Sequence record: MK373782.1 | DNA from: Escherichia phage vB_EcoM_KAW3E185 | Direction: 5' to 3' (one strand) | DNA: 64,000 nt | Part shown: in pieces, positions 1 to 41,352 of the stretch | Numbering within the stretch: position 1 is the stretch's first letter | Layout of the letters: each line of letters opens with the position of its first letter | Position numbers and translations under genes: made by a program | The notes under the pieces: generated by a model | Told to the model about the DNA's origin: nothing | The model's database searches: none | Seen by the model: only the letters and a program-made list of their open reading frames with translations

Positions 1-1563
1 GTCAAAACGATAATCAACATCTAATGGTTCGTCAACAGAAAGATTAGGATTATGCAATGCCTCTTTAATTATTTCACCATTACGTTGAGCTGCAAGCATA
101 TAACCTTTATGTTCTTTACGTTGATTAAAGACCTTAGTGATTTCAGTTGGAACTACACCATCACGGTCTTTATAATACATCATGCCGTTAGGAGAACAAC
201 TGTACACATCTGAAGGACGTTCAGCGATTGCGTTAATATAATCATGCAATGGAGCTACTTTAAACGTTCCTGCTATTGTTTCCGGGCTAATATTCACTTG
301 GCGAATAATACTTGGATACAGAGATGTAAGGTCGAAACTCATTACATATTTGTATCGATTTGGAATAGGTTCCTTAACAAAAGCGCCAGGATAAGGTTGA
401 ACCGGGTGAGAACGACCTTGTGGAATCACCTTGTTTTGTTCTTTAAGGCTATTAAAAATAATAGCATCCCAAGTTTTAATTGGACTGAACACAGATTGAA
501 TCTGAATTTTAGCATAATAACCCATGTCCAAACTCAAGTTGATGAACTGACGCTTAGCATCAATTTGCAATACACGATACACGTCGATAATGTTATAAGA
601 AATATATCGTTGGTGATTGCTTTCACGAAGCTTAGAAATAGGGCCGTCATATTTCAGTTTACCAACGTTCAATTCAAATTCTGAAATGTAATCCAGAGAA
701 TACGACGGTTGGTTCGTGAAAGAGAACTTTTTGTAAAGGTCAATGTAATCAAGAACAGAGATACCGAACAATGTAATGATTTCACGAGAACCATACATGT
801 TTTCGATAACTTTAACACGAGTTTTACGATGTGGTGATAAACGTTTCGCAGTAGATTCGCCAAAAATATTCTTGATTCGGTTATACACATATGGAATATC
901 AAATGACTCAACGTTCCATCCAGTCAAAATGACAGGAGTTTTCTGTTGCCAGAAGTTGAGATATTCCATCAACAATTCTTTTTCGTTATCGAACGGCATA
1001 TAAATGATTTTATCGATAATTTCGGATGGAACTTCATCACCACCTTGTTCTTGAAGCTTAGCCGCAATTTCGATAGACCATTCTTCTACATTACCATATG
1101 GAGAATTCAATAGATCAAATACGTAGAACCTGTCGTCAATTGAGTCATAATGGGTGATAGCATCAATCGGATGTTTTGCTTGTGACGGCTCAGGGAACCC
1201 ATCCGGAGATGTTACTTCGATGTCGAAGTTAGCCACACGAATTTTTGTATGGTCGTATTTGATTTCATAGTTATAAGTGTCAGACAAATACGCCAATTTG
1301 AAATCGTCCATGCCAAGTGCTTCAAGTCCGATATCTTCCATGCGTTTAATCCATTGGGAGGCATCACGCATATTAGCGAACAACTTACGAGTACACGGCT
1401 TACCGTAGATATCGAAATATTTCGTAGCCTGACTTTCTGGACAATGAGCAAACAGTGATGGTTTATATTCTACTTCACGAGTACGTTCACGGCCATTAGA
1501 ATCGATGTAACGTTCAAAAATTGAATCACCAATCTGTTCAACCGTTAAGTAAAATTCTTTCAT
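1..1563 (-). CDS. 43: DNA polymerase gp43, N-terminal 521 codons (gene runs off the window edge)
   Basis: ATG at 1563-1561; translation begins MKEFYLTVEQIGDSIFERYID, matching my recollection of T4 gp43 (MKEFYISIETVGNNIVERYID); in frame to position 1; lies downstream of regA as in T4. Confidence 0.9.
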   Translation of the reverse strand, partial: MKEFYLTVEQIGDSIFERYIDSNGRERTREVEYKPSLFAHCPESQATKYFDIYGKPCTRKLFANMRDASQWIKRMEDIGLEALGMDDFKLAYLSDTYNYEIKYDHTKIRVANFDIEVTSPDGFPEPSQAKHPIDAITHYDSIDDRFYVFDLLNSPYGNVEEWSIEIAAKLQEQGGDEVPSEIIDKIIYMPFDNEKELLMEYLNFWQQKTPVILTGWNVESFDIPYVYNRIKNIFGESTAKRLSPHRKTRVKVIENMYGSREIITLFGISVLDYIDLYKKFSFTNQPSYSLDYISEFELNVGKLKYDGPISKLRESNHQRYISYNIIDVYRVLQIDAKRQFINLSLDMGYYAKIQIQSVFSPIKTWDAIIFNSLKEQNKVIPQGRSHPVQPYPGAFVKEPIPNRYKYVMSFDLTSLYPSIIRQVNISPETIAGTFKVAPLHDYINAIAERPSDVYSCSPNGMMYYKDRDGVVPTEITKVFNQRKEHKGYMLAAQRNGEIIKEALHNPNLSVDEPLDVDYRFD

Positions 1564-4347: not shown

Positions 4348-4764
4348 TTATGCAGCAACCATCTGCTTTTTAATAGCTTCAGGCAGTGATTCAATATATT
4401 CTGGAATTTTAGAAGCAACAATTTCGCCAGCTGCAATTAGTTGTTCGTCGGCATCAACACAGTAAAAATCTTCAAGGCGTTCAGAACCGTCTTTATCAAG
4501 AACGATTTTAGCACCTGCTTCGATAGAATCTTTATAGTGCTTACGCATCAAATGAATCCACATATCAGACACATCGTTATCAATAAAACCATAAATCATA
4601 AAACGAGTTTCTTGTGGCAAAGATTGGAGTTTTTTAGCACTTGCGTCATCACAATGCAGGACCCATGCTTTACGAACACGATTATGGTTATGCGGGTTAG
4701 CGTCAGTACGGATAGAAGTAACTTTCAGATCAGCAGCGGTAAAACCTTTAGCAGTAGTAAACAT
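4348..4764 (-). CDS. rpbA: RNA polymerase-binding protein RpbA-like (138 aa)
   Basis: Assigned by position between 45 and 46 as in T4; ATG start; sequence identity not verified. Confidence 0.5.
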   Translation of the reverse strand: MFTTAKGFTAADLKVTSIRTDANPHNHNRVRKAWVLHCDDASAKKLQSLPQETRFMIYGFIDNDVSDMWIHLMRKHYKDSIEAGAKIVLDKDGSERLEDFYCVDADEQLIAAGEIVASKIPEYIESLPEAIKKQMVAA

Positions 4765-4776
4765 ATTATTTCTCTC

Positions 4777-4965
4777 TTATTCGTAGAAGTCGGTAACTGT
4801 CCATGCGGAATTGCGATTAGACATTATTTTATTATACTCATCTTTAAAAGCAGATTTGAGCATTTGTTCAGTGACAATATGTTCTTCACCTGAAAACGTA
4901 TTGGTCAAAACATATTTTTTAATTTCAGGGACAACGAGAAGATGTTGTCCAGTTGAATACTCCAT
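4777..4965 (-). CDS. hypothetical protein, 45.2 position (62 aa)
   Basis: ORF 4777..4977; internal ATG at 4965 with GGAGA upstream gives 62 aa, the size of T4 45.2. Confidence 0.45.
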   Translation of the reverse strand: MEYSTGQHLLVVPEIKKYVLTNTFSGEEHIVTEQMLKSAFKDEYNKIMSNRNSAWTVTDFYE

Positions 4966-5019
4966 GTTGTTCTCCATTTAATTTGATGTGGTCATTATAA
5001 CCACATCGTGTTAAAGCGT

Positions 5020-6708
5020 TTATGAAACAGTCATTACCGTAAATCGTCCAACTTTGCTCATTTGAAGATGTTGTCCATAAGCTTGTGGGTCATGGTCTCT
5101 GTGACTAATTATAAACACGTTTGCATCGGTTAGAGAGTTAAGAATTGTTGAAATGGCTTTAATACCTTCGGAATCAGTCGCGGAATCCATGACTTCGTCC
5201 ATAATTAATGTATTGATTCTAACACCAGAGACCTTTTCAGCAATATCTCGCCATGTAAACAACAATGCGATATCGATACGTGCCTTTTCACCTTGACTAA
5301 ATGAAGCATAACTGAACTCTTCACGACCGCGTGATTTTATAGATTCATTGAATTCTTCGTCAATAGAAAACACGTAATCAGCTTCCATGATTTTAAGATA
5401 ATGGTTAATCTGCTTGTTGAACAGAGGCACATATTTTTTAATGATAGCACCTTTAATACCAGAATCTTTTAACATATCTGTGATAATACCACGATGGTAT
5501 TTTTCAAGAACGATATCTGATTTTGTTTTAATGATTTTATCAAGTTCTTTTTGAAGCAAAGCTATCTCATCGGCATGGTCGATAAATTCTGCTGAGGCTT
5601 GCTCTATTGCAGCTTTAACTTTCTTAGCTTTATCAATAGTGGCAATCATTGCTTGTTTCTTGGTACGAATATCAGATGCAAGGTCCTGTTTAGTCTTAAC
5701 ATTAGCTCTATATTCATCAACTAGGACACTCAGATTATCTCTGTGACAGGTAAGTTGCTCGAATGAGTGATTACATTCATGAAGCTTATCGGTAATCTTA
5801 GAGACAATAGGGTCACCCTGGTGCAATTGTGATGCACAAGTAGGACATGTGCCACCGTCATGATACATCTTAATAACTTTGTTATATGAGTCGATTTTAG
5901 ATTTAATCAAGAATGCTTCTTGTCCTATCTTGTTGAATGCCTCAGTAGGGTCTTCATCAAGAACGATATTAAGTAGTCGCTCATTAGCTTCTTCGATTTC
6001 TGCTTTTAATGAACGAGCTTCTTTGGCTAGGTCGTCATACATATTCTGTAGACGCGCTACATTATCACCAGATAATTTCTTTTGACGTTCGATATTCTCA
6101 TTATAAATCTTAATTTGTTGGATAACACCATCTTTCTTGGCATCGAGAACTTGTCCCTGGGAATTAAGTTCTCGAACTTGAGACTTATTGATTTTATCCA
6201 TTTCAGCGAGTGTGCCGACTTCTAAAAGGTCTTCGACAAGTTTTCTACGAGCAGGGGTGCTAAGAGCCATGAAAGGGGTATACCCTGCCGTCCCAAGCAC
6301 AACGATCTGTTTAAAAGACGCGTATGACATTCCGATGCTACGTTCAAATTCTTCTTGGAAGTCACGACTGCTGGCAGATTCATCGAGACGAACACCGTCA
6401 ACGGAGATTTCGAAAATATTGGGCTTTTGGCCGCGTCTAATGAAGTATTTTTTATCATCGAATTCCATCCAAAGCTCAACTAAGAGCTCTTTCTTGTTCG
6501 TGCTATTAATGATTTGTCCTTTCTTAACATCACGAAATGGTTTACCGAAAAGTCCGAAAGTAATGGCTTCTAACATCGTAGATTTACCACCGCCATTTTT
6601 ACCAGTGATTAATGTCTTTTGGACTTTATCTAATTGGATATCAATAGGATTCCCACCTACCGACATGATGTTTTGATAACGAACACGATTTAATTTAAAT
6701 GATTTCAT
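5020..6708 (-). CDS. 46: recombination endonuclease subunit gp46 (SbcC/Rad50-like ATPase, 562 aa)
   Basis: N-terminal Walker A GKNGGGKST; long coiled-coil middle; central CPTC zinc hook; C-terminal ABC signature region; length matches T4 gp46. Confidence 0.9.
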   Translation of the reverse strand: MKSFKLNRVRYQNIMSVGGNPIDIQLDKVQKTLITGKNGGGKSTMLEAITFGLFGKPFRDVKKGQIINSTNKKELLVELWMEFDDKKYFIRRGQKPNIFEISVDGVRLDESASSRDFQEEFERSIGMSYASFKQIVVLGTAGYTPFMALSTPARRKLVEDLLEVGTLAEMDKINKSQVRELNSQGQVLDAKKDGVIQQIKIYNENIERQKKLSGDNVARLQNMYDDLAKEARSLKAEIEEANERLLNIVLDEDPTEAFNKIGQEAFLIKSKIDSYNKVIKMYHDGGTCPTCASQLHQGDPIVSKITDKLHECNHSFEQLTCHRDNLSVLVDEYRANVKTKQDLASDIRTKKQAMIATIDKAKKVKAAIEQASAEFIDHADEIALLQKELDKIIKTKSDIVLEKYHRGIITDMLKDSGIKGAIIKKYVPLFNKQINHYLKIMEADYVFSIDEEFNESIKSRGREEFSYASFSQGEKARIDIALLFTWRDIAEKVSGVRINTLIMDEVMDSATDSEGIKAISTILNSLTDANVFIISHRDHDPQAYGQHLQMSKVGRFTVMTVS

Positions 6709-6953
6709 ATGTATTCTCTTCGAATGAAGTCCTCTACATATTTTAACATGTCATCTCTATCAGCAAAATATTCATCTAGTTCCGCATACATAACAACACC
6801 TGGTGCATACTCGCAAGTAACATACATTGTTCCAAAGAAACGAGGAGTTGATTCCTCGTAATTCTCAGTCCATTCAACGATGCCAATATAACCGTCACCA
6901 ATACTAAATTCATGACGATGGATTTCATAATCAGTCTTCGTCATTATACGCAT
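6705..6953 (-). CDS. hypothetical protein, 46.1 position
   Basis: Small ORF between 47 and 46; ORF-track start is TTG, first ATG at 6953. Confidence 0.45.
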   Translation of the reverse strand: MRIMTKTDYEIHRHEFSIGDGYIGIVEWTENYEESTPRFFGTMYVTCEYAPGVVMYAELDEYFADRDDMLKYVEDFIRREYI

Positions 6954-7188
6954 CCTCAATACACGCTTCAGCCATTTTAAGAATAGAGCCGGGAGTATCG
7001 TTGTCCATTATATTAAAGCTAAATTCAATAGCCCAGTCGGTGCAGACATGAACTGCTTTAACTTCATTGCCTTCAACGCGTAATGGCTCAATCCAATACT
7101 TGATAGTGTTCTCGAATCCATCATCGTCTTTAACGTCCATTTCAACTTCAAGTCCAAGCCCAGCATTATTAAATTCATCTAAAGTCAT
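6931..7188 (-). CDS. hypothetical protein, 46.2 position (85 aa)
   Basis: ATG start; overlaps stop of gene 47 (ATGA-type junction). Confidence 0.5.
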   Translation of the reverse strand: MTLDEFNNAGLGLEVEMDVKDDDGFENTIKYWIEPLRVEGNEVKAVHVCTDWAIEFSFNIMDNDTPGSILKMAEACIEDAYNDED

Positions 7189-8204
7189 TGTGTTGCCTCA
7201 ATATAAAGTTCGTTGGAATATTTGACCAGCGCTTCTCTGTCTTCGTCTGAGATATCTGGAATCGCGTCAATATATTCTTTAATGATATCTTGAAGTGATT
7301 TAATCTCGATTTCCTGGTCATCATCAGATTCAACACTGTTATCAACTTTAGAAACCATACGAAGAGAGTGAACTACTTTTTCAAGTTCAGATTCAAACTT
7401 AGTCAACTCTGAATCAATTTCTGATACTATAACACGTACGGCTAGATTAGTATAATCAGAATAATTGATTTTGCCTTTAAACGGATAAGTGATTCGTCGA
7501 TGCCATGTTGTTTCATTAGGAATAAATTCCATACGTTCAACATCAGTGTCAAATACCCAGAATCCGCGCGGGTCGTTCTCATCGCCTGCAGTAAGGGTCC
7601 ATGGTGTCCCAATATATTTGACGTTAGCAGCTTCAGAGATTGTGTGGAAGTGGCCGGACCAGACTTGTTTATAGGTCTTTAAGAAATCAGGTTCAAGCCC
7701 ATGAGACTTCATTCCTTTATAGAAATAAAAGCCATTCAGTTCCCAGTGCCCAACACAATACGCTGCGGAAGAAGTCTTGATGTGCTCTAAGATTTCACCT
7801 GTATTTTCTTCACACATCCATGGAACGATATCAATCAGACATCCGTCAAAATCTACAGTAGTTGGATGTTCGTAAATAGTAAAGTTTTCAAATTGAGTTA
7901 ACAATTCAGAAACAGTGTTAGGTGTTATTGTATTCTTAAACGCCATGTCATGGTTTCCTATCGTGACATGAACGTGAATGCCTGCTTTAGAAATCATATC
8001 AACGATTTCACGATTGAATTCCATTGTACGATGTGTTATTGCTTTACGGACGTCAAACCAATCACCATACTGAATCCAAGTTTTAATCCCGTGTTTCTTA
8101 GAGTATTCAATTGCTTGACGAATACCATCACGTTGAATATCTTGAACCCATGGGTCGTCTTGTTTGACTCCGATATGGAAGTCGCCTAAGTGCAAAATTT
8201 TCAT
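7185..8204 (-). CDS. 47: recombination endonuclease subunit gp47 (SbcD/Mre11-like, 339 aa)
   Basis: Calcineurin-like phosphoesterase motifs (LHLGDFH near N-terminus, GNHD, GHWE, GHFH); length matches T4 gp47. Confidence 0.9.
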   Translation of the reverse strand: MKILHLGDFHIGVKQDDPWVQDIQRDGIRQAIEYSKKHGIKTWIQYGDWFDVRKAITHRTMEFNREIVDMISKAGIHVHVTIGNHDMAFKNTITPNTVSELLTQFENFTIYEHPTTVDFDGCLIDIVPWMCEENTGEILEHIKTSSAAYCVGHWELNGFYFYKGMKSHGLEPDFLKTYKQVWSGHFHTISEAANVKYIGTPWTLTAGDENDPRGFWVFDTDVERMEFIPNETTWHRRITYPFKGKINYSDYTNLAVRVIVSEIDSELTKFESELEKVVHSLRMVSKVDNSVESDDDQEIEIKSLQDIIKEYIDAIPDISDEDREALVKYSNELYIEATQ

Positions 8205-25772: not shown

Positions 25773-26354
25773 TTATAACAACCCTGTCAAATCATTCCAA
25801 TGCTTCCGGCATAATGACACGTATCTATCGGTATCACCAATTTCAATTTGACTGCCATCTGTAATTGGAAGTCCGTCTTCCGTGACTCTAGCTACCATTG
25901 TGGCCTTTTTACCACAATGACAGACACCTTTAAGTTCAACAAGCTTATCGGCAATAGCCATTAATGCTTGAGAACCTTCAAATAGATTACCTTTAAAATC
26001 TGTTCGTAGTCCATATGCCATTACCGGCACATTGTACACGTCAACAATACGACTAAGTTGATACACCTTTTCAGTAGTTAAGAACTGAGCTTCGTCAACA
26101 AATACGCAGTGAATATCCTTTTGTGCTGCAGCCCATTTATAAAATTCAAAGATATCCATGTCTTTTGTAATTATATTGGCGTCCTGACGAATACCAATAC
26201 GAGAGACTATTTCACCTTTTGAATCGCGAGTATCAATAGCCGGTTTAAGAACTAATACACCCATGCCACGTTCTTTATAGTTATGTGCGGCAGTAAGTAA
26301 TGAAGCAGACTTACCAGCGTTCATAGCGGCATAGGTAAAAATTAAACTAGCCAT
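25773..26354 (-). CDS. tk: thymidine kinase (193 aa)
   Basis: P-loop AAMNAGKSASLL; C-terminal zinc-ribbon cysteines; length matches T4 Tk. Confidence 0.9.
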   Translation of the reverse strand: MASLIFTYAAMNAGKSASLLTAAHNYKERGMGVLVLKPAIDTRDSKGEIVSRIGIRQDANIITKDMDIFEFYKWAAAQKDIHCVFVDEAQFLTTEKVYQLSRIVDVYNVPVMAYGLRTDFKGNLFEGSQALMAIADKLVELKGVCHCGKKATMVARVTEDGLPITDGSQIEIGDTDRYVSLCRKHWNDLTGLL

Positions 26355-26546: not shown

Positions 26547-26749
26547 TTAGGTTCACCTTCTTTAACGAAATCTGGGTAAGGGTAAAATCCTGAGTAAAAC
26601 CCTTCACCTTTATGATTGCTACAACCTTTGTTCGAACAGTAACACCAATAATCAAAATCACAAGCCATTTCGTCATTGCATAAAGCAAAAACTACAGGCC
26701 ATTCGCATTTTTCGCATTTAGCACCTGTAAGAATTTTTGTTTGACTCAT
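26543..26749 (-). CDS. hypothetical Cys-rich small protein (about 68 aa)
   Basis: ATG at 26749 overlaps the upstream stop (ATGA); about 10 cysteines. Confidence 0.45.
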   Translation of the reverse strand: MSQTKILTGAKCEKCEWPVVFALCNDEMACDFDYWCYCSNKGCSNHKGEGFYSGFYPYPDFVKEGEPK

Positions 26750-26958
26750 AGCCATGTCACCTTTAAGCAATATTCTTCTACATGTTGTTTACGGCCTTTC
26801 TTATCAATAAAGGTATATTCAACGAATGTTCCGATGTAGTCTTTATCTACATCATGTGGACTATTAATTGGACATTTGGTACGGCAAATGCGTTCCCATT
26901 GACGAATAATTACTGCCTTATTCTTTGGGTCATATGGATGTGGATAATGTATATTCAT
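26746..26958 (-). CDS. hypothetical protein (about 70 aa)
   Basis: ATG at 26958 overlaps the upstream stop. Confidence 0.45.
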   Translation of the reverse strand: MNIHYPHPYDPKNKAVIIRQWERICRTKCPINSPHDVDKDYIGTFVEYTFIDKKGRKQHVEEYCLKVTWL

Positions 26959-27452
26959 AATAACGGTTCCCAATCAACAATCACAATTTCTAGTTTAGTA
27001 GAATACGTATCTAAAATCTCTTCGATGACATCCCAGTTTCCACCACCAATACCTGCACCAATTCTTGGCATATAAATTACAGGCTTTATTATCTTATTCT
27101 TTCCGAATTCATTTAATTCTATTATACAATTCATTAAAGCAGAGTACTCAAAATTAGGTCCCGGCTCAAACTGTGTATAAAGATTAAAGCAATAAGCTTT
27201 ATGGGTCTTAAAATATTTTTCATAAACCGAATAAGTCCCGAGTTTAGACTCGTCTCCGAATTCGGTTTGAAGTTTATCGGCTTCCAGAATTTTTGGATAA
27301 GCCTTTGCTAATTGGCCTGCTACACCGGCGCCCATTGTATGAAAACAATTACACCCATGAGCAATATTATTACCTTTAGAAAACAGGGCGACAATATCGC
27401 CCTTGATATAGTTTTTAATCACTTGCTGCAAGTCCTCTATTATAAGAGTCAA
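26955..27452 (-). CDS. macro-domain-like protein (putative ADP-ribose binding/hydrolase, 165 aa)
   Basis: IAHGCNCFHTMGAGVAGQL aligns with the macro NAAN...GGGV motif and PRIGAGIGGGNW with the second glycine-rich motif. Confidence 0.55.
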   Translation of the reverse strand: MTLIIEDLQQVIKNYIKGDIVALFSKGNNIAHGCNCFHTMGAGVAGQLAKAYPKILEADKLQTEFGDESKLGTYSVYEKYFKTHKAYCFNLYTQFEPGPNFEYSALMNCIIELNEFGKNKIIKPVIYMPRIGAGIGGGNWDVIEEILDTYSTKLEIVIVDWEPLL

Positions 27453-27762
27453 CTAGACGGTCCACCATAGAATTGCATGCTGCCTTATCTTTAGGTTCCG
27501 CCACCGAGCATTCTAATATTTGCCATTTTTTATAGTATCTTTTAATTAAGGTAGACGCCTTGAACCTACTAGACGCCCCGTCTTTTTCTCCGTCTTTATA
27601 CGCATATAACAATTTTTGTGAAAAATCTACTTTACACTCTTGACTTTTACCACAGTAATCAGACGCCGTTCTGTTTGTATACTCCGTTACATCAGTATAT
27701 GTAGTATTAGCAAGAGCGTTAAATGAAACCAAGCCAACTATTAAAGCCAACATTTTGGTCAT
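27415..27762 (-). CDS. hypothetical secreted Cys-containing protein (115 aa); positional candidate for T4 vs
   Basis: Signal-peptide-like N-terminus MTKMLALIVGLVSFNALA; sits in the vs position at the T4 vs length, but identity is unverified. Confidence 0.45.
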   Translation of the reverse strand: MTKMLALIVGLVSFNALANTTYTDVTEYTNRTASDYCGKSQECKVDFSQKLLYAYKDGEKDGASSRFKASTLIKRYYKKWQILECSVAEPKDKAACNSMVDRLVDSYNRGLAASD

Positions 27763-29311: not shown

Positions 29312-29525
29312 AAGGAATTTCCTCATCAGTGGCAAGGTCATATTCGACCAATTGGATAGGCTCATTAATACCATATCCACGTACAGTGATATCAGTTGTC
29401 GGATAGTTTCCGGTAATATCACCCATTCTAAATGCTTCAGTGAATGATTGCTCGCCTGAGCAACTAAACCAGGCGGCAAAACATTTTAAAACATCTTCAG
29501 ACCCTTCTATAATCAATTTAGCCAT
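29301..29525 (-). CDS. hypothetical protein (74 aa)
   Basis: ATG start. Confidence 0.4.
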   Translation of the reverse strand: MAKLIIEGSEDVLKCFAAWFSCSGEQSFTEAFRMGDITGNYPTTDITVRGYGINEPIQLVEYDLATDEEIPYVD

Positions 29526-29887
29526 TATAGACTCTCAGTAAAGGTGCGAGCGATAACGTCGCGCTGCTGTTCCGGAGTCAGGGAGTTAAAGCGAACTGCA
29601 TAACCAGATACACGGATGGTCAGCTGCGGATATTTTTCTGGATGCTTAACTGCATCTTCTAGAGTTTCACGACGCAGAACGTTAACGTTCAGATGTTGAC
29701 CACCTTCAATTTTAACTTTAGGGTAATGTTCAATTTCAATTTCACGGGCATGCAAACCGTAGAAAATTTCCGGGTCTACAATAGCGTCTTCTTTAAAAGT
29801 CTTAGAGACAATAATCCGGGCTTGAGTACCGTCTTCAAAATAAATAGTGCCTTTGTGTGTGCCTTCAAGAATTTGATATGCTTTCAT
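29525..29887 (-). CDS. autonomous glycyl-radical cofactor (GrcA/YfiD-like, 120 aa)
   Basis: C-terminal 60 aa ([60 protein letters not shown]) match what I recall of E. coli GrcA, including the RVSGY glycyl-radical motif. Confidence 0.85.
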
Positions 29888-41195: not shown

Positions 41196-41272
<77 letters not shown>

Positions 41273-41275
41273 GAT

Positions 41276-41352
41276 TGGTGACCCAGACCAGATTCGAACT
41301 GGTAACCTTTCCCTTATGAGGGGACTGCTGCTAACCGTTGAGCTACAGGGCC
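41276..41352 (-). tRNA. tRNA-Ile (anticodon CAU, Ile2-type)
   Basis: Minus-strand GGCCCTGTAGCTCAACGGTTAGCAGCAGTCCCCTCATAAGGG...TTCGAATC...CACCA; anticodon loop CUCAUAA; called Ile rather than Met from the T4 tRNA set. Confidence 0.75.

Follow-up and report, generated by a model that had tools for sequence, protein, structure and literature searches.

The tk.4 gene of a T4-like Escherichia phage: an orthologue of the anti-DarTG2 factor AdfM with glutamine at the position of the catalytic lysine of DarG

What does the small macro-domain-like protein that is encoded near tk in a T4-like phage do for the phage, and with what active site does it do so? The locus lies in a 64,000-nucleotide stretch of the DNA of Escherichia phage vB_EcoM_KAW3E185 (sequence record MK373782.1; the window, in what follows). 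A preliminary description, made from the sequence without database searches, had singled out a 165-aa ORF among the tk-proximal accessory genes and proposed that its product handles ADP-ribose adducts, perhaps countering host systems that use ADP-ribose derivatives. The ORF runs on the minus strand of the window from 27452 to 26955, and its 165-aa translation holds both of the glycine-rich motifs, IAHGCNCFHTMGAGVAGQL and PRIGAGIGGGNW, to which that description had drawn attention.

The ORF is part of a packed minus-strand gene series made up of tk (25773..26354), three small ORFs, the ORF itself, and then ORFs of 115, 180 and 152 aa. Named by function, the order in the window is tk, three small ORFs, tk.4, vs, vs.1, regB, in agreement with the placement near tk that had been described. 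The counterparts in phages JK45, RB32 and T4 are tk, tk.1-tk.3 (variable), tk.4, vs, vs.1 and regB, and it is this common gene order that identifies the ORF as tk.4 of a T4-like phage. A 2.5-kb query covering the tk-regB region shares 99.4% identity with Escherichia phage APCEc01 and 99.3% with Shigella phage JK45, and matches 657 phage records in total; judged by its sequence, the window is Tequatrovirus DNA. The downstream junction of tk.4 is of the ATGA kind, the ATG of tk.3 (26958..26956) overlapping the TGA of tk.4 (26957..26955). A DarT-like ORF is not found near tk.4 in the ORF list or in the JK45 annotation mapped onto the window, the neighbors being vs and tk.3. Extrapolation from the offset to the T4 map would place the genes for the ADP-ribosyltransferases Alt, ModA and ModB outside the window. 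A scan for σ70-like promoters yields 16 sites versus 19.2 expected from shuffled sequence, that is, no excess.

Some features of the surrounding DNA are recorded here in their own right. A 120-aa ORF on the minus strand (29525..29887) ends in a glycyl-radical motif (RVSGYAVRF) and is the counterpart of T4 vs.6, which is annotated as the autonomous glycyl radical cofactor GrcA. The 64-kb window contains two tRNA genes only (Arg-TCT and Met-CAT, adjacent on the minus strand at 41196..41352), whereas T4 has eight. The public annotation of JK45 attaches the name 'endoribonuclease' to the vs.1 homologue (4760..5302) and to the counterparts of T4 vs.7 and vs.8 (6895..7739; positions are those within the JK45 locus). 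In T4 only regB has that function, so these names look like propagated mis-annotations.

The start codon of tk.4 is most likely the GTG at 27422, which gives a protein of 155 aa. Thus, the preliminary description was right about the existence of the ORF and its minus-strand location, but not about the length of the protein: 165 aa is what results from applying the rule that an ORF begins at the first ATG, GTG or TTG after a stop. In alignments with T4 and RB32, this GTG falls on the ATG of tk.4; tblastn matches in other phages set in at residue 10-11 of the longer ORF; and the annotated CDS of the near-identical phage JK45 is 468 nt, the same length as 26955..27422. In T4, an in-frame TAG directly precedes the tk.4 ATG, so that no N-terminal extension of the T4 protein is possible. 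On these grounds the TTG at 27452 has been rejected as the start. The GTG is also favored by the putative Shine-Dalgarno-like GAGG 11 nt before it (Table 1), part of a GAGGA element that is kept in T4, RB32 and JK45. The origin of the longer frame can be read from the vs/tk.4 junction (27415..27452), where one nucleotide of the T4 sequence is missing from the window. The deletion alters the C-terminus of vs and changes the overlap of the two genes from 4 nt, at an ATG, in T4 to 8 nt, at a GTG, in the window. It also opens the frame upstream of tk.4, and hence creates the spurious ten-codon extension.

Table 1. Position of tk.4, its neighbors and its putative functional elements in the window
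Feature	Position	Strand	Basis and remarks
tk.4 / adfM CDS	26955..27422	-	155 aa; GTG start, TGA stop; single macrodomain
vs (valyl-tRNA synthetase modifier), upstream neighbor	27415..27762	-	TAA stop (27417..27415) overlaps tk.4 GTG by 8 nt
tk.3, downstream neighbor	26746..26958	-	JK45 annotation mapped onto the window; T4 gene order
Ten-codon 5' extension (TTG start)	27423..27452	-	Inside the 3' end of vs; most likely untranslated as part of the tk.4 protein
GAGG, Shine-Dalgarno-like	27434..27437	-	11 nt upstream of GTG; putative, read from sequence
Terminator-like hairpin, AGGGCGAT-ATT-GTCGCCCT then GTTTTC	27376..27403	-	Pattern scan; stem-loop 27403..27385
Substrate-binding loop, residues 22-36, HGCNCFHTMGAGVAG (HGCNC...MGAGVAG)	27315..27359	-	Alignments and mutational data on equivalents
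NLYTQ, residues 80-84, end of predicted β strand 75-84 (AlphaFold2 model)	27171..27185	-	
Phosphate-binding loop, residues 119-130, PRIGAGIGGGNW	27033..27068	-	Three alignments

The 5' end of tk.4 contains a terminator-like hairpin with an 8-bp stem and a 3-nt loop, which begins 20 nt into the gene and 12 nt past the vs stop codon and so falls within the first 50 nt of tk.4. Its nucleotide sequence is kept in T4, RB32, fPS-65 and KMB42 and, among the phages compared, is absent from Moon and F48; the fPS-65 record labels it 'terminator'. This element may serve to attenuate read-through transcription from vs into tk.4. The KMB42 homologue (positions 370..880 of the KMB42 locus) presents a separate point. 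Its upstream 30 nt and first ~40 nt match T4, and the protein as a whole is only 58% identical to that of the window, which suggests a mosaic gene with a recombination breakpoint just past the hairpin.

Assignment of the protein to the macrodomains is well beyond chance, and so the central proposal of the preliminary description stands. The profile search that it had called for gives a match to Pfam PF01661 (Macro) with E=2e-6; it scores 28.2 bits, where the gathering score is 22, and extends over positions 2-117 of the 118 in the profile. PHROG 335 is matched with E=2e-66. In the PDB, a direct search with the sequence turns up BT1257 (8e-11), yeast Poa1p, SCO6735, DarG and TARG1. DarG is the sole match in PADLOC (E=1.2e-9, covering positions 4-145 of a 329-position model) and, as equivalog NF048014, in NCBIfam (profile positions 4-146 of 338), where it scores 33.3 bits and the cut-off is 250. 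The fold likewise comes out as proposed: the AlphaFold2 model, built with 66 homologues as input, has a mean pLDDT of 95.3 and a pTM of 0.90, and predicts the three-layer α/β/α macro fold, in which two Gly-rich loops form the ADP-ribose cleft. A profile of the phage family ranks TARG1 (9e-17), BT1257 (2e-16), SCO6735 (3e-14), DarG (1e-13) and Poa1p (1.8e-13) ahead of all others (at least 3e-4), and alignment of the phage family with the DarG macrodomain family by hhalign has a probability of 99.2% over 147 columns. The class of the domain is ALC1/TARG1/DarG-like: by structure as by profile, its nearest neighbors are TARG1, DarG, SCO6735/BT1257, Poa1p and ALC1, and it is clearly set apart from the MacroD, viral nsP3 and PARG types. 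Within this class, the Tk.4-type proteins are a subgroup of their own, roughly equidistant from the subgroups that have been characterized.

By alignment and position, the window gene is the orthologue of T4 tk.4, now named adfM (anti-DarT factor, macrodomain). The two proteins are of equal length (155 aa) and align without gaps; 132 of 155 residues are identical (85%; 95% similar; T4 Tk.4 is NP_049723). The genes occupy the same place between vs and tk.3, all family-invariant residues are identical, and the 23 differences all lie outside the invariant and near-invariant columns of the family. One of them is at position 127, in the phosphate-binding loop, where the window has the Gly of the family consensus and T4 has Lys (GAGIGKGNW). 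Thus it is the T4 allele, the one that has been tested experimentally, that is atypical at this residue.

The gene is already known: its annotation as a macro/A1pp protein goes back to that of the T4 genome, and it has counted as an anti-DarTG2 factor since 2025. The T4 record has described tk.4 from the first as 'phosphatase; contains A1pp phosphatase motif', and its orthologues appear in many phage records as 'macro domain protein' or 'Poa1p_like family'. The function comes from genetics. T4 lacking both adfA and adfN (gene 30.3, a NADAR) stays resistant to DarTG2, which predicted a further factor (PMC11825919). In the HIDEN-SEQ preprint of November 2025, tk.4 is the single significant match in a T4 transposon library grown on a DarTG2 host; a clean tk.4 knockout makes T4 sensitive to DarTG2, and the gene was renamed accordingly (bioRxiv 10.1101/2025.11.20.689424). 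On plain E. coli K-12, T4 can do without tk.4, and the gene is reported to be conditionally essential solely when the host has DarTG2, the evidence being that of a preprint with the T4 allele and one, plasmid-expressed, DarTG2 system (bioRxiv 10.1101/2025.11.20.689424). The same authors find that the predicted structure of T4 Tk.4 resembles the DarG macrodomain, and consider that removal of ADP-ribose from DNA by T4 AdfM 'seems likely' (bioRxiv 10.1101/2025.11.20.689424). The earlier proposal that the protein counters a host ADP-ribose system is thereby supported through the T4 orthologue, and plating on DarTG hosts, which had been suggested as an experiment, is what the published work on T4 bore out (bioRxiv 10.1101/2025.11.20.689424). 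(In other words, a reader of raw sequence had picked a real counter-defense gene and proposed an experiment that later proved right.)

What is new is confined to the predicted active site, with Gln in place of Lys, and to what this implies for mechanism and origin. An invariant Gln at the position of the DarG and TARG1 lysine is not mentioned in the T4 literature on Tk.4/AdfM cited here. The analysis rests on an alignment of 66 Tk.4-type sequences, ranging down to 39% identity, and a set of 37 DarG-type sequences. In the substrate-binding loop, conservation among the 66 homologues is 90% or higher at H22, G23, C24, N25 and M30, and complete at C26, G33 and A35. H22 and N25 are the equivalents of His24 and Asn27 of SCO6735, and N25 also corresponds to N22 of DarG and N23 of PhiKZ AdfM (profile-profile alignment; MAFFT); mutational data on these equivalents have been published (PMC9411070, PMC13309987). 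N80, Y82, T83 and Q84, at the end of the predicted β strand, are invariant. Q84 sits at the catalytic Lys of DarG (K80) and TARG1 (K84), and at Gln85 of SCO6735. K80 is invariant in the 37 DarG-type sequences, as is Q84 in the 66 of Tk.4 type. In the phosphate-binding loop, the invariant residues include P119, I121, G122 and G124, the last of which corresponds to SCO6735 Gly128; G126 is found where TARG1 has its catalytic Asp125. Equivalents of the entire SCO6735 catalytic set (H22, N25, Q84 and G124) are thus, throughout the phage family, either invariant or conserved to 90% or more.

The register on which this reading depends, Q84 = DarG K80 = TARG1 K84 = SCO6735 Q85, is accepted because three alignments agree on it. 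The profile-profile alignment to DarG (99.2% probability) places Q84 on the invariant K80 and also pairs N80 with N76, T83 with T79 and N25 with N22. A MAFFT alignment of 106 sequences, including SCO6735, BT1257 and ALC1, has the same register, with Q84 on Gln85 of SCO6735. The family profile aligned to TARG1 pairs K84 with Gln and D125 with Ala/Gly. (Pairwise HMMER alignments to BT1257 and Poa1p, and a five-sequence MAFFT alignment, give registers that are displaced by 1 to 7 residues and conflict with one another; these have been set aside.) With Gln at the Lys position and Gly at the Asp position, T4-type AdfM lacks the catalytic residues of DarG and of TARG1.

How, then, might the protein protect the phage? 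The probable answer is that it is a free-standing 155-aa macrodomain, the orthologue of T4 AdfM, that hydrolyzes ADP-ribose off DarT2-modified thymidines in single-stranded phage DNA. According to this scheme, the host's DarT2, the toxin of DarTG2, would ADP-ribosylate thymidines in single-stranded phage DNA and so block replication. AdfM would hold the ADP-ribose moiety by its two Gly-rich loops, HGCNC...MGAGVAG and PRIGAGIGGGNW, and hydrolyze the N-glycosidic bond between thymine and ribose, with water presumably positioned by the invariant Gln84 together with Asn25, as has been proposed for SCO6735; neither a DarG-like Lys nor a TARG1-like Lys/Asp pair would take part. Unmodified DNA would be restored, allowing phage replication to resume. 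The anti-DarTG2 role itself rests on genetics in T4 and would apply, by orthology, to the 85%-identical allele of the window; enzymatic action of the T4-type protein on thymidine-linked ADP-ribose we infer from its characterized relatives. The SCO6735 mechanism may not transfer directly, since the mobile loop of the T4-type protein is five residues shorter.

Protection without hydrolysis is conceivable, because the catalytically dead Q85A mutant of SCO6735 still inhibits DarT in vitro (PMC9411070). The protein might, in that event, protect against DarTG2 mainly by binding, either as a stoichiometric inhibitor of DarT2 or as a shield over ADP-ribosylated sites. That DarG also neutralizes DarT by direct interaction (PMC9411070, PMC9967889) speaks for such a role, as does the observation that dead SCO6735 Q85A, DarG K80A and TARG1 K84A all lower DarT activity in vitro, SCO6735 most of all (PMC9411070; PMC9967889); absence of the canonical catalytic Lys from the T4-type protein points the same way. 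Nevertheless, binding as the main mode of protection is improbable: the protein has only 155 aa and lacks the C-terminal DarT-binding domain of DarG, and the residues that SCO6735 uses for hydrolysis are kept across a very diverse phage family, as is expected of an enzyme and not of a binder of a single toxin. An eraser, moreover, works whichever DarT wrote the mark.

Hydrolysis of DarT2-made marks must also be weighed against the action on other substrates that existing names imply. It is very unlikely that the protein serves small-molecule metabolism, as a Poa1p-like ADP-ribose-1''-phosphate phosphatase or an O-acetyl-ADP-ribose deacetylase that clears NAD-derived by-products. In its first loop, H22 and T29 align with H23 and S30 of Poa1p (pairwise PDB-search alignment), a protein of which mutant structures are present in the PDB. 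The phosphatase and deacetylase names come from homology alone, and the match of the family profile to Poa1p (1.8e-13) is weaker than those to TARG1, BT1257 and SCO6735, and about equal to that of DarG. We know of no pathway in T4 infection that produces Appr1p, and the sole phenotype on record is specific to DarTG2 (bioRxiv 10.1101/2025.11.20.689424). Other marks might be erased instead, those that phage Alt, ModA and ModB place on host proteins or RNA, or those that other host toxins place on RNA; reversal of ADP-ribosylation in a phage with transferases of its own had been raised in the preliminary description. Alt and the Mod enzymes modify arginine, and to our knowledge this linkage is not cleaved by TARG1-like macrodomains. 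T4-type phages do encode ADP-ribosyltransferases (PMC9503650), and TARG1, DarG and SCO6735 also take ADP-ribose off uracil in RNA (PMC13036486), yet even so this is the least probable of the readings considered. The mRNA ADP-ribosylating system CmdTAC still defends robustly against T-even phages that have tk.4 (PMC11618068); its modification of adenine is described as irreversible (PMC13036486), and tk.4 is dispensable when DarTG2 is absent (bioRxiv 10.1101/2025.11.20.689424). Thoeris hosts had also been named in the preliminary description for plating; nothing found speaks for a role against that system, or for reversal of marks made by the phage's own Alt, ModA and ModB.

Proteins of this type are widespread. 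tblastn detects relatives in 2,798 of 50,697 phage records, distributed over Tequatrovirus and other T4-like genera, rV5-like and Felixounavirus-like phages, and phages of Vibrio, Acinetobacter, Pseudomonas and Bacillus, and a large protein database holds 369 clusters, mostly nameless. Should these proteins constitute a Gln-type branch, a suggestion taken up below, erasers of thymidine-linked ADP-ribose would have been recruited by phages at least twice, as the Lys type in PhiKZ and as the Gln type in T4-like, rV5-like, Felixounavirus-like and other phages. The range of the Gln type might then extend to, for example, uracil-linked ADP-ribose on RNA, as in SCO6735. Biochemistry on the Gln-type family would gauge how far Lys-independent reversal of DNA ADP-ribosylation has spread.

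Comparison with known macrodomains brings out what is shared and what is particular. Human TARG1 (OARD1; PDB 4J5S) is the best match of the family profile, and its loop after the catalytic position is equally long. It removes thymidine-linked ADP-ribose (PMC12879935). TARG1 K84A is inactive, as is DarG K80A, and TARG1 also uses Asp125 (PMC9967889). The catalytic pair Lys84 + Asp125 of TARG1 is, however, represented in the window protein by Gln84 and Gly126. The macrodomain of DarG from DarTG2 (PDB 5M3I, 5M31, 7OMU) has in common with Tk.4 its fold, its class, the Asn of the first loop and a GxGxGG..W phosphate loop, and DarG and T4-type AdfM share the same biological opponent, DarT2. On the other hand, DarG has Lys80 (in FPTK) and Trp83, whereas the Tk.4 type has Gln84 and, where Trp83 aligns, no equivalent residue, and DarG continues into a C-terminal DarT-binding domain whereas the Tk.4 protein ends after its macrodomain. 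That the window protein is itself a DarG has been considered and rejected: Lys80 and the C-terminal domain are lacking, no darT is adjacent, and the score falls at 33.3 bits versus 250.

PhiKZ gp104 is the other phage protein for comparison, an orphan macrodomain of a chimallivirus that acts against DarTG2 and bears the same name, AdfM, as the T4 protein (PMC13309987). It strips DarT2-made ADP-ribose from DNA in vitro and rescues cells from DarT2 (PMC13309987). Gp104 is imported into the phage nucleus, and is Lys-type and DarG-like, with an FPTK motif; it falls within the DarG family alignment and is 36% identical to M. tuberculosis DarG. The T4-type proteins form a separate, Gln-type subgroup. 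These different catalytic types and subgroups imply that T4 and PhiKZ probably acquired their AdfM independently.

The closest likeness in catalytic residues is to SCO6735 of Streptomyces coelicolor and BT1257 of Bacteroides (PDB 5E3B, 2FG1), which are Gln-type and ALC1-like, and have a His, Asn, Gln, Gly set in common with the Tk.4 family. SCO6735 is a cellular, DNA-damage-inducible protein whereas Tk.4 is viral. It cleaves thymidine-linked ADP-ribose more rapidly than either DarG or TARG1 does, and it protects E. coli against DarT; its Q85A mutant has lost all activity, His24, Asn27 and Gly128 contribute, and G128E lowers activity (PMC9411070). What marks the SCO6735/BT1257 subgroup is a mobile loop that exceeds those of DarG and TARG1 by five residues (PMC9411070). 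In the Tk.4 type, this loop after the Gln is five residues shorter than in SCO6735 and BT1257, and thus of TARG1 length: the span Q84-Y93 is 9 residues in the window protein, as is K84-Y93 in TARG1, and the corresponding spans are 14 residues in BT1257 and 13 in SCO6735. Conversely, the hairpin that precedes the Gln position is ~3 residues longer in the Tk.4 type than in SCO6735/BT1257. T4-type AdfM can therefore be thought of, tentatively and with the balance still somewhat against it, not as a captured DarG but as an independent Gln-type branch of the ALC1-like macrodomains, which would combine the catalytic set of SCO6735 with the short loop of TARG1.
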